Source: Eledone cirrhosa (taxonomy: Eukaryota). From it: a stretch of DNA of 64,000 nt. A program made the translations under genes and the position numbers. The notes under the pieces are model-generated. The model was not told the DNA's origin. It did no database searches and saw only the letters and a program-made list of their open reading frames with translations. The stretch's first letter is position 1. Every line of letters starts with the position of its first letter. The DNA is taken from contig OZ024743.1 in the NCBI GenBank assembly GCA_964016885.1, positions 153,326,001 to 153,390,000 of the forward strand, in the 5' to 3' direction. Below are positions 8,802 to 63,060 of this stretch, piece after piece.

Positions 8802-8914
8802 CAGTATTAAAAATTGTTTCATTGATCAGTGTGTCTAAAAATTGCTAATCACTCGAAGTTGTGTCACTCAATTTTAAATACAATGTACGCGTAATCCAAT
8901 CATCAGAATAACTG
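8802..8914 (-). ncRNA. Decayed hammerhead with 79-nt stem II
   Basis: Minus: cagttatt CTGATGA ttgg...tcaat GAAA caattt TT aatactg, then aataaa; the downstream tail 8591-8728 matches 6892-7030 inverted. Confidence 0.6.
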
Positions 8915-9391
8915 ATTACAATTATACACGGCGTTTGTAATATACTACGAAAATTCAAATCACAACATCAGTAATAAAGAAAGAAAAAAGAAAAAGCGAG
9001 AGAAAAAAAATATAATAAATAAGTTAGAATGAAGATGATAAAAAATGACTAAAAAAATATATATGTGTGTGTAAAAAAGTGGACATAATATGATTGTTGA
9101 AAATAGTTGTTGGTGGTGGTTGTTAAAGTATAACGATGTGATGGTATAAATATGAAAATATTAAATATATACATATATGTATTGGTTAACTTACAGAGGG
9201 TTATATTATGAAGAAATAGTACAGCGCTAAATAAAGGATAAATTAATAAATTGGAAGTTATGTGAGAGGTGAAGAGAACATGATAGGATATAATGTAAGA
9301 CTTGAAATAGTTTTAGGGAAAGAGAGTGAAAGAGAGAAAGGTTAAGGGGTTATGATGTTGATTCAGTCATTAGTTGTTCTATTGGCAGTTA

Positions 9392-10412
9392 ATAATAATT
9401 GTTTCTACTTTTGGCACAATGCCAGTAATTACCCAGTGCATTACTGGTACTTTATTTTATCGATCCCGTAAGGATGAAAGGCAAAGTTTACCTCGGTGGG
9501 ATTTGAACTCAGGCGATAAAGGACTGTAACTCTATGCTGCAAAGCATGGTGTCCAACTCTCTACCGATGCTGCCAATCCACAATGGGTTATTATAATAGA
9601 CTCTAAGTGGTTCAGTTTGAATTATGGGATTGTTGGATCGAATCATGTTGGTTTGAAAGTAGCAAATTTCGTAGCTGCTTTATGCCTACAGAAAATTGAC
9701 AGTTCTATTTTGCTGTTAAGCAGCATTTTGTCATATTTTGTGAATTGGCAGTATCGGTAGAGGGTTGGACGCCATGCTTTCCAGCATAGTTACGTCCCTT
9801 TACAGTCTGAGTTCAAATCCCGCCGAGGTTAACTTTGCCTTTCATCCTTACGGGTCGATAAAATAAAGTACCAGTAATGTACTGAAAAATTGCTGGCCTT
9901 GTGTCTAAAGTAGAAACAATTATTATTATTAGTAGTAGTACTGCAGTGGACTGGCAGAATCAGTAGATTGTCGGACATCATGTTTTGCTGCATAGAGTTA
10001 CAGACCTTTACGTTCTGAGTTCAAATCCCGCTGAGGTTAACTTTGCCTTTCATCCTTACAGGGTTGATAAAATAAAGCACCAGTAATGCACTAGGGTCGA
10101 TTTAATCATCCCCCCCCCCGCCCCCTTGTGCTTATACTAGAAATTATTGCAGCAAAGAGTTACGGCCCTTTATGTTCAGAGTTCAAATCCCGCCAAGGTT
10201 AACTTTGCCTTTCATCCTTACGGGGGTCAATAAAATAAAGTATCAGTAATACACTGGGATAATTGCTGGCCTTGTGCCAAAAGTAGAAACAATTATTATT
10301 ATTATCCTTACAGGGTCGATAAAATAAAGCACCAGTAATGCACTGGAGTCGATTTAATAAACTTTCCCTTCCCCTTCAAATTGCTGGCCTTGTGCCTAAA
10401 GTAGAAAATTAT
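9392..10412. mobile_element. Cluster of five SINE family A copies: 9392-9580 (-); 9740-9930, 9945-10145, 10150-10300 and 10304-10412 (+)
   Basis: Repeated gagttcaaatcccg..actttgcctttcatccttac.gggtcgataaaataaag core. Confidence 0.9.
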
Positions 10413-11199
10413 TTTATTTTCAAATACTGATGATCGTTAATTGTTTTTGTGTAGTCTCATGTTAAAATTGATTGTGCAGTCCTTTGGCACACAGATAATT
10501 AGCCAAATGACATAGTGTGGGCCAGAGATTCATAATTCATGATTATACAATGTCTTTAATAAGTGAAGAACCATACTTCCCATTTCAATATTCAGTGATG
10601 AATTGCATAAGGTGCTGTACCTTTACTAATACTTTATGTCGGAGATATGATAAGCTATTTCATGAGATAATCAGAATTTATTATTTGTTAAGGTGGCTTT
10701 GAGTAATTCTTGTATGAGTGGATTTCAATGAAAAGAATCAAAAGTTTTGATGCTGATGATGATAGCTAATATGGTATATTGAAGAACTATTGTGTTGTTG
10801 CTGTTGAAACCATTATTGTTATGTGTGTGAATAGTATGGGGGTTGAGTTTTGGTTAGATCCTGCATTGTTAGACTAGATTATAAGGATCTCTAAAAGAAT
10901 GGTATCACAATTAATAAGAAACAGATTTGCTTTAGGTTAGATACAGTATGATATGGGCATATGATGCATATGAAGGATGCAAATAAATAATAGGACAAAT
11001 AAACCTCTCAATAAAGATGACAAAACTGTAATGATCAGTAACACAGTGCTGGAGAAGACTCACCCACAAATGCAAGCATGGTGAAATGAATATTAAAAGT
11101 ATAGTAGAGTTGGAGACTGGGAAATATATCTTCCTTTGGGTTATTCATCCAATATGTCCTCCTTAATGATGCTCACTTATTGGATCTTGTCTCATTTCC

Positions 11200-11760
11200 T
11201 TGATTCTCACTCAGTCTCATATTAGCAGTACTGTACTGCCTACATCATCTGTAGAAAGGTCCCTGTGTTGTGACCAGTCCAGTATTTGATGCTGTCAGAC
11301 CAGGATTTTCTTTGTCTGCCTCTCATTCGCCCTGCTTCAACTGGGCCATGTAGGATGTTTTTAGACTTCTTTTCACCATTGCAAGGAGTGGTTCCTATCT
11401 GCCAGCATATTTGTGAAGTATTGCCTGACGAAGCTGTTTGTTTTGTGCTCTGTGTATAAGATGTGTAGCAGCACTTGTTCTCAAATGCCTCGATTCTTTG
11501 TTCCATGTTAGCTGTGAGAGTCCAACTCTCACATCCATACACAAGGGTCAAAGTCACCAAGGACTTACATAGTTTGAGCTTCTTTGGAAAACTAATGGGC
11601 TTGCTTTTCCATATGCCATTCAACTTTACAATGGCAGATGTGGCCAGGCTGAGTTCTGTCAGTATCTCCATTTGAGATTTGTTGTCTTTGGTCATAGTGG
11701 ATCCTAGGTACTTGAAGGTGTCAACTTCTTCAAGACTTCCTCCATTCCAATAATACACGC
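11200..11760 (-). mobile_element. RTE-clade LINE 3' ORF remnant
   Basis: LEEVDTFKYLGS...LVYGCESWTL...GRMRGRQRKSWSDSIK in ORF 11240-11821. Confidence 0.85.
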
Positions 11761-11965
11761 TACATCCTACTATCACCTTCCTTATACAGCTAGCCAATAC
11801 AATCCTTTCTCTTAAGACCATATCTTAGAGAAAGAAGACACCCCTCACTTGCTCTCTGTCATTCACCAATAGGCATTTAACTACTACTCCTGTGATATAT
11901 CCTTTCTCTGGCTTCCCACAACACTGTCTCTTCCATTATACTCTCATTTCCTTCTTGTATTATTG

Positions 11966-60680: not shown

Positions 60681-60876
60681 TAGATAAATCTACCAAGAGT
60701 TTACGGTAGTGTCCAATCCGTATGAAGAACTCAATGTAATCTGGATATCATGGAAAGAAGAGATGCAATGAAAAATCACTTTCGGTGAAAGATAAACGGA
60801 ATACAGAGTGAAGATAAAATATAAAAAAAATAATGAATAAAACAATGACACAGTTCCTTATATTAAACAAAAAAAG

Positions 60877-61031
60877 TTCATTATTTAACGATCGTTTCTA
60901 GGATATATATGTATTAGAATTGGCATGCATATTCAACAGATCTATGTACAAAATTATACAAAATTATACAAACTATCAAAATTAAATATACATACCAAAC
61001 ACATATATATGCCGTCTTCAGAAATAATGAA
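60877..61031 (-). ncRNA. Hammerhead with 10-bp stem I and 116-nt stem II
   Basis: Inverted copy of 61815-61969. Confidence 0.82.
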
Positions 61032-61814
61032 ATATATTTATTGATAATAACAACAATTCAAAATTACAGGTCTGTTTGGGAACAGAGTTCAAATTGACCA
61101 ATGAAAATACAAAAAGTTTATACAGTTAGGTGTGTGTATATATATGTAAGTAACTTCGTTCACAGATATGCATACAGTTATATGTTCACATGCATACGCA
61201 TGCCAAAAAGATGTATGTAAATACAAAAATTCAAGGCTAATGTCTCTGTATATTTATAATCTACAGATAAAAATACGTATACACATATAAATATAAAATA
61301 AATATATACACACATTCATATACTCACACATATACGTACATTCACACACACACGCGCGTATACGCATAAACATACACACAACCACGAACATACATACACA
61401 CATACACCCCCACACACATATATATGTGTATATACTATTATCATAAGGATATGGACATTAATGCGCGCACATAAACACTGCCACACATATTTAGATGTGT
61501 GTGAATGTACGTATATGTGTGAGTATATGAATGTGTGTATATATTTATTTTATATTTATATGTGTATACGTATTTTTATCTGTAGATTATAAACATACAG
61601 AGACATTAGCCTTGAATTTTTGTATTTACATTCATCTTTTTGGCATGCGTATGCATGTGAACATATATCTTTATGCATATCTGTGAACGAAGTTACTTAC
61701 ATATATATACACACACCTAACTGTATAAACTTTTTGTATTTGCATTGGTCAATTTGAACTCTGTTCCCAAACAGACCTGTAATTTTGAATTGTTGTTATT
61801 ATCAATAAATATAT

Positions 61815-61969
61815 TTCATTATTTCTGAAGACGGCATATATATGTGTTTGGTATGTATATTTAATTTTGATAGTTTGTATAATTTTGTATAATTTTGTAC
61901 ATAGATCTGTTGAATATGCATGCCAATTCTAACACATATATATCCTAGAAACGATCGTTAAATAATGAA
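61815..61969 (+). ncRNA. Hammerhead with 10-bp stem I and 116-nt stem II
   Basis: ttcattattt CTGAAGA cggcatatatatgtgtt...aacacatatatatccta GAAA cgatcg TT aaataatgaa. Confidence 0.85.
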
Positions 61970-62109
61970 CTTTTTTTGTTTAATATAAGGAACTGTTTCA
62001 TTGTTTTATTCATTATTTTTTTTTATATTTTATGTATATATATATATATTTATACATATATATATATATATATATATATATATATATATATATATATATA
62101 TATATATAA

Positions 62110-63060
62110 AATTTCATGTTATCAATAATGTAGTGATAATATATCGTCACGTTAGAGATGAACAGCGTACGTGTAGGTTTGCTCAACGAGTATAAATTAT
62201 ATTCCGGAGAAAATGTAGAAAAGATGAATATAAAATGAAAGTGCTTTTACAAAGGAATTTATTAGGTATTGACATATGTTTCTGTAACAGACGGAATACC
62301 TATGTATCGCTGCTTGCGTAATCATATAATGTTAGCAAGTATTCGATAGCAAATGTATAATCAGTTGTCACTTCTTCAGAGATATTGGATAAATTGGAAA
62401 AAATCAGAAAAATTGAAGAATTTATAATAGTTGTAAGAAAGGAAGAAGAGAGGGGATAGTATATGACAGATAGCAATTCGATTTACTGGTAAACAAGTAT
62501 ATAAAAGTTTTCTAATGAGAATACAATGAGTATATGGTTTATTTTATCTAAATAAGAATTTTTGGGAGTGCCTATTTTAATCTATACTTGACCAATTGAA
62601 CAATGGACAGGGCTGGTCGTTTGGTGTAGTAGTATTAATAGATATAAAGTGTCAATTAAGGAAGAGGGAGATTTTCACTGCTACTGAATAACAACAATGC
62701 TGGTAGCCTGCTGGTATAGGCATTAGGGAATTGAATTAAGAAATCTCATTTTATCTATAGCAGTTTATATTAAATGGTAAAGAATAGAAGTGTTGATAGA
62801 ATTAAGACTAATAGAGAATGTTAATATGTATTTTGACAATCAAACGGAGATGGAGACAGGCGTTCAATCCTGGTAGTGTTTGTAATATGAAAATGTAGAT
62901 TTCAAGCGATGGTTACAGTATAACGATCGCTCTATTCTGTTATTTAATAAAATATTTTTGGATTTCGTAATACAAAATAATTCCATATTACACAATTTAC
63001 AAAATTCCTGTCCGTGGAAATGCAGGGGCAGATGCTATTATATCCCATTTTAGGTTAAAT
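62110..63060 (-). mobile_element. Second PLE, heavily 5'-truncated: GIY-YIG C-terminal remnant plus 3' UTR with HHR
   Basis: Minus 62880-63060 reads FNLKWDIIASA../CKLCNMELFCI...LLNNRIE..YCNHR, paralleling the C-terminus of the first PLE. Confidence 0.7.
62265..62385 (-). ncRNA. Hammerhead with 90-nt stem II and decayed stem I
   Basis: atatct CTGAAGA agtgaca...tgttaca GAAA catatg TC aatac, then aataaa. Confidence 0.65.

Follow-up and report, generated by a model that had tools for sequence, protein, structure and literature searches.

What a hammerhead ribozyme does with an unusually long second helix is the question raised by a 64,000-nt stretch of the Eledone cirrhosa genome (contig OZ024743.1; G000:C4:153326001-153390000), hereafter the window, from an assembly of 3.0 Gb that is 34% GC and rich in (TA)n. 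An earlier note on this stretch had pointed to nine hammerhead motifs and had viewed stem II as a variable-length cargo slot shared by independent families. The analysis presented here leads to a different picture, which is held with moderate confidence: the motifs are type I hammerheads at the 3' ends of Hydra-clade Penelope-like elements (PLEs) and of protein-free tandem derivatives, and the long arm formed by stem II is a folded extension, fixed within each family, that likely offers the stem I side a scaffold on which to dock. Arm length is given throughout as the spacer between the CUGANGA box and GAAA, and L-numbers are labels of loci beyond the window.

The arm lengths reported for the nine sites are exact: 38 nt (core at 34839), 116 nt (61825) and 488 nt (18999) on the forward strand, and 51 nt (59173), 57 nt (57918), 62 nt (27179), 79 nt (8906), 90 nt (62379) and 94 nt (22619) on the reverse strand. 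The four palindromic stems III named in the note are also present, at 59.1, 57.9, 61.8 and 62.3 kb, and two further long-armed copies were found on the reverse strand (58509 and 61021). Seven of the nine sites have a CUGANGA core, that at 57.9 kb is a U3-A8 variant, and that at 34.8 kb is without C3 (UUGAUGA). A descriptor made of the type I core and three helices, allowing arms of up to 200 nt and scoring with a bias toward long stems, matched the window eight times at a score of at least 13, against a mean of 0.05 and a maximum of one in 20 local dinucleotide shuffles. This strict descriptor finds four of the nine sites and misses the decayed ones at 8.8, 22.5 and 34.8 kb, the one at 62.3 kb with a bulged stem I, and the one at 19 kb, whose spacer exceeds the 200-nt limit; the copies at 8.8 and 22.5 kb are decayed, yet the majority sequences of their families are intact. 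Compensatory changes support three helices around the core, with stem I open, the exception being stem I of the 62.3-kb family (F62), which is bulged after its first pair. These results bear on the simplest alternative, namely a chance combination of CUGANGA with a distant GAAA in AT-rich repeats. Long permitted spacers do raise the number of false matches, two low-score matches with arms above 130 nt look spurious, and Rfam at its gathering score finds no hammerhead in the window, long or short (among the 150 of 248 matches listed by e-value, nearly all are microRNA matches in AT repeats). Chance is nevertheless refuted for the families by the compensatory changes and core covariation, by the expected location behind PLE open reading frames (ORFs), and by 62 long matches in a census of the genome where shuffles gave about one; it keeps next to no probability and applies only to single low-score matches.

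The nine sites represent eight repeat lineages of high or middle copy number. Searches were genome-wide and started from each named site except that at 34.8 kb, with 40 copies scored per large family. They returned 2812 candidates for F8, 2067 for F27, 1864 for F22, 1559 for F59, 1539 for F19 and 1487 for F62, a pattern search gave 6716 exact 27-mer matches for F61, and the four candidates for F57 are too low a count, as five F57-cluster matches occur in 79 arbitrary stretches. Arm length is constant within each family: 39 nt in F19, 51 in F59, 59 in F57, 62 in F27, 79 in F8, 90 in F62, 95 in F22 and mostly 115-116 in F61, where variants differ by 10-nt units (104-126 nt). In the window, F8 (8802-8914, reverse; arm at 8899-8821) is decayed, and in the majority sequence of its family the base of stem II spans 9 bp and stem III is a palindrome; F22 (22498-22623, reverse) has a three-way-junction arm of 94-95 nt; F27 (27092-27186, reverse) is accompanied by a partial inverted copy at about 27203-27290; and F59 (59098-59187, reverse) folds into a stem, an internal loop and a hairpin. 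F57 is present twice on the reverse strand (57836-57929 and, one 591-nt tandem unit upstream, 58427-58520), with a covariant core that is the known U3-A8 variant in four of four loci, and F61 as an inverted pair (60877-61031, reverse; 61815-61969, forward), the latter copy with a 10-bp stem I. F62 (62267-62385, reverse) is very young, at 99-100% identity; in this family (L061-L090) stem I contains an extra C beside the core, stem I being clean in the related L053 and L076.

The independence claimed for these families stood only in part. The decayed motif at 34.8 kb (34833-34902, forward; intact relative with a 34-nt arm at L356:2505) and F19 are sister lineages, with 87 of 118 aligned flank columns identical; F8 and F62 belong to one ORF clade; and the families at 57.9 and 59.1 kb share one architecture. 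Nor does the 488-nt spacer of the F19 copy (18993-19512, forward) count as a slot length, since it is a dead one-copy minisatellite expansion of the 39-nt arm and not cargo. The array consists of 31 copies of a 15-nt unit (19019-19485, forward), lies between 6-nt direct repeats and derives from the terminal loop of the arm, and a pattern of 2.3 units matches four times in 3.0 Gb, each time within this array. At 29 other F19 loci the 39-nt arm is intact in 13, expanded in none and shortened in one, 12 loci being 5'-truncated and three spurious pairings.

That the base of stem II is paired, as the note had stated, is borne out by pairing conserved within families. The per-family covariation check that it had proposed gave no usable signal; the alignments were made, and the test has low power because copies decay in a star-like manner. 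The covariation signal lies between families, where diverged relatives from the census could be aligned and compared with 500 shuffles and slid controls. In the F59 group (five rows) six of 24 pairs changed on both sides with 99% of cells paired, the changes falling in stem I, at the base of the arm and in its inner hairpin. In the F22 group (five rows) it was ten of 39 pairs with 95% of cells paired, across a three-way junction, and in the F61 group (four rows) eight of 26 with 98% paired, including a swap of C3-G8 for U3-A8 in the core. Each of these results was reached in none of the 500 shuffles, and slid controls gave zero to four pairs. Two unpaired motifs, a C.C mismatch that does not vary and an internal loop AKUU/UAG, persist in all four families of the F61 group while neighbouring helices turn over, and the loop, as AKU(U)/UAG, recurs in the structures that RNAfold predicts for F8 and F62.

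It could be argued that the arm is tolerated cargo all the same, having grown by slippage and fold-back, with only the closure of stem II mattering and the rest being paired so as to spare the core. This would suit the 488-nt copy, which keeps a 4-bp stem II base, the 10-nt steps of F61, the arms of 26-27, 34, 38 and 39 nt carried by sister lineages with the same stems I and III, and the fact that simple hairpins of 30-36 nt are the commonest class of long arm. It does not explain why unpaired motifs outlast the helices around them in F61 and recur in the predicted folds of F8 and F62, or why the arm is complementary at a fixed register to sequence outside it, and we judge it rather unlikely. 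The 'cargo slot' is the wrong picture because the fold of the arm, unpaired motifs included, is kept between related families through compensatory changes, so that the arm is better read, from sequence comparison, as a fixed and folded part of each family.

The complementarity just mentioned involves a purine-rich leader 5' of stem I, which matches an unpaired strand of the arm over 4-7 bp. The leader lies 1-5 nt before stem I and its partner starts 8-10 nt into the arm, and this register is the same in four sequence groups whose solutions differ: GGGC/GCCC, GAGAA/UUCUC, GAGGU/ACCUC and GGAAA/UUUCC. It is found in F22, F57 and F59, the three tandem families of the window, and in two families outside it (L064/L271 and L293/L295), and RNAfold leaves the partner strand, which follows the first arm helix, largely unpaired in all five. 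MAFFT failed to align the strands of different groups in register, and the pairing was therefore tested by position. At least four strict pairs at the fixed register were present in 13 of 15 group representatives and in four of 41 others; among 3034 mismatched leader-arm combinations 7% reached at least four pairs and 1.9% at least five, and two of 44 Hydra motifs from other animals had at least four. Leaders mostly fit the arm of their own group best, although two GGAAA families fit each other's. A further family, L368, found after the rule had been fixed, keeps six pairs with a different stem II. Within the window the pairing survives in the two F57 copies only (leader 57929-57925 with arm 57903-57899, reverse strand); the F22 copy, 5'-truncated, stops just short of the leader, and the F59 copy has a mutated leader where its family has an intact one. 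We read the complementarity as predicting a pseudoknot between the stem I side and stem II, a contact that is known in other hammerheads, where it raised cleavage rates more than 100-fold in tested cases (PMC3088659), and for which no report was found in these elements. A separate motif at L069:719-796 has a 31-nt arm whose terminal loop could pair with its leader, possibly as a second type of pseudoknot.

The same leader might instead act as an off-switch, keeping the ribozyme inactive in monomers or circles until it refolds. The leaders of F27 and F8 are complementary to the base strand of stem II itself, that of F22 has a further possible partner in the stem I strand of the same motif, and unconstrained folding yields non-hammerhead structures for several families. 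The pairing in the five pseudoknot families is, however, compatible with the hammerhead fold because the partner strand is unpaired there, and an off-switch appears quite improbable.

The host elements are indicated by what lies upstream. F62 is found about 480 nt downstream of an ORF combining reverse transcriptase (RT) with a GIY-YIG endonuclease (EN) of Hydra type, F8 lies about 550-580 nt past the ends of Hydra-type ORFs in L221 and L222, and an intact Hydra-type ORF of 827 amino acids (L224/L225) sits between inverted F61 motifs, about 3 kb from the upstream and 3.7 kb from the downstream one. The gap of this ORF (L224:4731-7211) to its 3' hammerhead is unusually long at about 3.6 kb, as it is in L226, and ORFs closely related to it are followed by F61-group motifs at a distance of 0.7-1.1 kb. 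In L225 an ORF of 478 amino acids with a C2H2 zinc-finger array (2378-3811) directly follows an F61 insertion.

Pfam did not recognise these PLE ORFs. Read by eye against the marks given in PMC8557442, they show DKT, FDITMGSxD (a divergent RT4(B)), a CxCX5C linker, a C-terminal GIY-YIG domain with CxxC and CxH, and an RWK-like motif. The marks were read in the ORFs of F61 (L224, with RWR), F62 (L215-L219) and F8 (C-terminal part only) and in a decayed Hydra-clade element of the window itself (22640-26734, reverse; RT-EN remains at about 25710-23770, with an inverted 5' pseudo-long terminal repeat, pLTR); the element's protein has a homolog in Argonauta. The linked ORFs would thus belong to the Hydra clade, because their motifs together with (TA)n targeting match the marks of Craig et al. 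Two other identities were dropped, Neptune on account of the Hydra motifs and Naiad on account of the C-terminal endonuclease present in every linked ORF. A tree of endonuclease fragments, built from local and unnamed proteins only with one short row excluded, and not resolved at its base, joins F8, F62 and an 81-nt family (99/98) and sets the F61 group apart (99/99).

By these links F8, F61 and F62 stand behind Hydra-clade ORFs, whereas F22, F57 and F59 form tandem units and F19 and F27 are known by pLTR-type ends only; F19 reaches an ORF solely via a 38-nt relative, and no ORF link was found for F22, F27, F57 or F59. The tandem units share no ORF and carry one hammerhead each, measuring 702 nt in F22, 551-557 nt (about 553) in F59 and 591-595 nt in F57; those of F22 and F59 were seen at loci other than the window copies. 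Outside the window the L271 family has a 485-nt unit, identical in 40 of 40 scored copies, and is probably amplifying now; it is represented at L271:435-549 and G000:C1:382892519-382901864 and forms arrays of about 20 units. The L295 family includes a 478-nt dimer, most of its loci being single or inverted. Inverted 5' copies, typical of PLEs, were seen for F8, F19, F27, F61 and F62.

The 3' ends of genomic copies lie in (TA)n at set distances of 55-210 nt beyond the predicted cut site, which places the arm on the template near the start of reverse transcription. This raises the possibility that the arm is a binding platform for the RT of the element or for another protein, with little role in the rate of cleavage. 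In its favour, a lizard PLE hammerhead cleaves only with its protein, and insertion needs no cleavage (PMC11167929); F62, moreover, spreads despite its bulged stem I. The predicted pseudoknot, on the other hand, joins exactly the stem I side and stem II, as in fast hammerheads, Hydra elements elsewhere manage with arms of 12-25 nt, and the conserved motif is not the same between groups; a protein platform is therefore considered unlikely as the main role of the arm.

Short-armed motifs occur side by side with the long-armed ones. Five PLE-type hammerheads of the window have arms of 13-27 nt (7157 and 52171, reverse; 7951, 21686 and 56006, forward), those at 7157 and 7951 forming an inverted pair. 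The decayed element at 22640-26734 bears its own hammerhead-like motif, with a 13-nt arm and a CAGAAGA core, at about 22690 (reverse) and 26600 (forward). About 50 matches to this motif occur in the examined loci, and the abundant family to which it belongs has U4 changed to A throughout, with an otherwise complete type I layout including a stem III of 4-5 bp. It may be an inactive ribozyme in a successful element or a tolerated core variant.

How widespread long arms are was estimated from a census of 94 arbitrary 10-kb stretches (940 kb). At a score of at least 13 there were 80 matches, with arms below 30 nt in 17 (6-17 nt in one, 18-29 nt in 16), of 30-129 nt in 62 (30-49 nt in 40, 50-79 nt in 12, 80-129 nt in ten) and longer in one; the reversed sequence gave two matches and shuffles about 1.4. 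At a score of at least 11, nine close copies of the CAGAAGA family being excluded, the 100 matches comprised 28 short arms, 69 of 30-129 nt and three longer, which agrees with the expectation of the note that short-stem search patterns would miss such motifs. The core searches of Craig 2021 used spacers of 7-17 nt (PMC8557442). Extrapolation to the genome puts long-armed copies at about 2 x 10^5 (bootstrap 1.4-2.6 x 10^5), and those with arms of at least 45 nt at about 8 x 10^4, from matches that are clumped, the 62 lying in 34 stretches, 59 of them in the first 79 and three in the last 15. In a control with other animals, covering the best 80 of 508 Hydra-type loci on metagenome contigs, 44 distinct motifs in 58 of 78 loci all had arms of 12-25 nt, the arms of the window families being 1.5 to 5 times longer; the viral contigs searched held no relative. 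Most motifs here thus fall outside short-arm descriptors, on which hammerhead counts, and statements that some PLE clades 'lack' them, depend; recognising the long arm removes this blind spot.

How such an arm might work can be sketched as follows. For the tandem-type families, namely F22, F57, F59 and the two from outside the window, the leader-arm pseudoknot would keep stem I alongside stem II in the parallel arrangement of fast natural hammerheads; for the ORF-bearing F8, F61 and F62 the candidate for such a contact is the internal loop that they share, 5'-AKU(U)/UAG-3'. By analogy with PLE and retrozyme biology (PMC4209133, PMC7229834, PMC6765202, PMC11167929), multimeric transcripts would be cut after H17, probably through a dimer formed by the palindromic stem III, into unit RNAs or circles, which the Hydra RT would copy into (TA)n sites, with synthesis beginning downstream of a ribozyme left uncut or ligated again. 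Slippage would be tolerated at the arm's tip and would account for the 488-nt and the 104-126-nt variants.

Several observations weigh against this account of a docking arm. Self-cleavage after H17 and unit-length or circular RNA are predictions from sequence, and efficient cleavage may be dispensable, because the young and successful F62 has a bulged stem I and the abundant CAGAAGA family a U4A core; the lizard PLE, for its part, inserts from uncut RNA in vitro (PMC11167929). The G10.1-C11.1 pair is mostly missing, being present in one of eight window lineages and in 13 of 59 long-armed census matches. The pseudoknot pairing is missing at the fixed register in F8, F19, F27, F61 and F62, that is, in five of the eight lineages, and in the single-copy family at L356:2755, which came to light, like L368, once the rule had been fixed and fits otherwise with an arm of 62 nt. 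Its pairs are invariant inside groups (five of five and three of four, with one broken in L273) and differ on both strands only between groups, so that covariation depends on a homology of groups for which shared flanks and a shared layout, and no tree, were the grounds; the grouping and the register were picked after the pattern had been seen, and L368 was found with a model that contained an F59-type leader and is to that extent biased. The covariation alignments have only four or five rows and supplied the structures that they support, and are therefore to be taken as support and not as a p-value. Proximity to an ORF, finally, can mislead through nesting, and one such link (in a 20-nt row) proved false.

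A bolder scenario, which we put forward tentatively and regard as less probable than a docking arm as such, is that the Hydra-clade elements here rebuilt a slow PLE hammerhead into a larger, two-part ribozyme. The purine-rich leader would be caught by the internal loop of the arm to form the pseudoknot, which the U-rich strand opposite may clamp into a short triple helix (a speculation that fits well only the GGAAA/UUUCC families), with the result that circular retrozyme RNAs would be cut and re-ligated rapidly. Some 10^5 motifs of this kind would be invisible to current descriptors, and the eight Naiad 'half cores' of PMC8557442, with a second box 35-50 nt away, one of them in Octopus, and left unexplained in that text, may be of the same long-armed kind. 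In vitro, cleavage by PLE hammerheads is poor, and what they do is a matter of debate; a leader pseudoknot makes the question testable, and, if it is real, constructs trimmed at stem I would lose a contact that they need.

Two further features of the window are a tRNA-like segment at the Rfam gathering score (6442-6499, forward), which adjoins AT repeats and is probably the head of a short interspersed element, and a decayed LTR retrotransposon with remains of RT, RNase H and integrase (12615-16269, reverse).

Among known systems the closest are the Hydra-clade PLEs with a C-terminal endonuclease (PMC8557442), which share with the elements described here DKT, the divergent RT4(B), the CxCX5C linker, (TA)n targets and inverted 5' copies, and which include an Octopus member, Hydra-1_Obim. 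Their hammerheads are likewise of type I, close to the 3' end, with a stem III of 3-4 bp and frequently a U.U or other non-G-C pair at the base of stem II, and these motifs, too, often lack G10.1-C11.1. The published arms are simple hairpins of about 12-24 nt, whereas those seen here reach 39-116 nt, are often branched and have either a predicted leader pseudoknot or a conserved internal loop; in the available text of PMC8557442 only plant and algal PLE-X and Chlamys motifs, marked as deviating, have long arms (about 54 nt). The available parts of PMC10085705 and PMC6962438 hold nothing on long arms, and no account of a long, branched helix II in animal PLE or retrozyme hammerheads was found in the literature, where a prior mention is possible.

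The minimal PLE hammerheads of Cervera and de la Pena 2014 (PMC4209133) resemble the present ones in their pLTR location, a palindromic helix III suited to dimers, the U3-A8 variant and the many families per genome, and differ in their low activity, in a conserved G10.1-C11.1 and in a helix II that has 7-8 bp and is capped by a small loop, where a multi-helix arm mostly missing that pair is found here. That they are minimal, as the note had it, holds for the whole arm of only about 12-25 nt but not for helix II, which is larger than usual. Metazoan non-LTR retrozymes (PMC7229834; bioRxiv 10.64898/2026.07.22.740005), which derive from PLE pLTRs and reach copy numbers of up to about 10^5 (126,247 in axolotl), are protein-free tandem units with one type I hammerhead each, as here; their units measure 220-390 nt and either have contacts between loop 1 and loop 2 or show no recognised contact, while those of Eledone measure 478-702 nt, have long arms and are predicted to make their contact by base pairing. 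The predicted contact itself has its counterpart in the pseudoknotted hammerheads of Perreault et al. 2011 (PMC3088659), in which a helix of 4-6 bp ties the stem I side to stem II and which occur in all three types and in about 40% of representatives. Those tested were mostly microbial type II ribozymes, together with human C10, and often had a very short stem II, whereas here, in selfish retroelements of an animal, the proposed partner would lie within a long arm, as a strand of an internal loop or of a junction.

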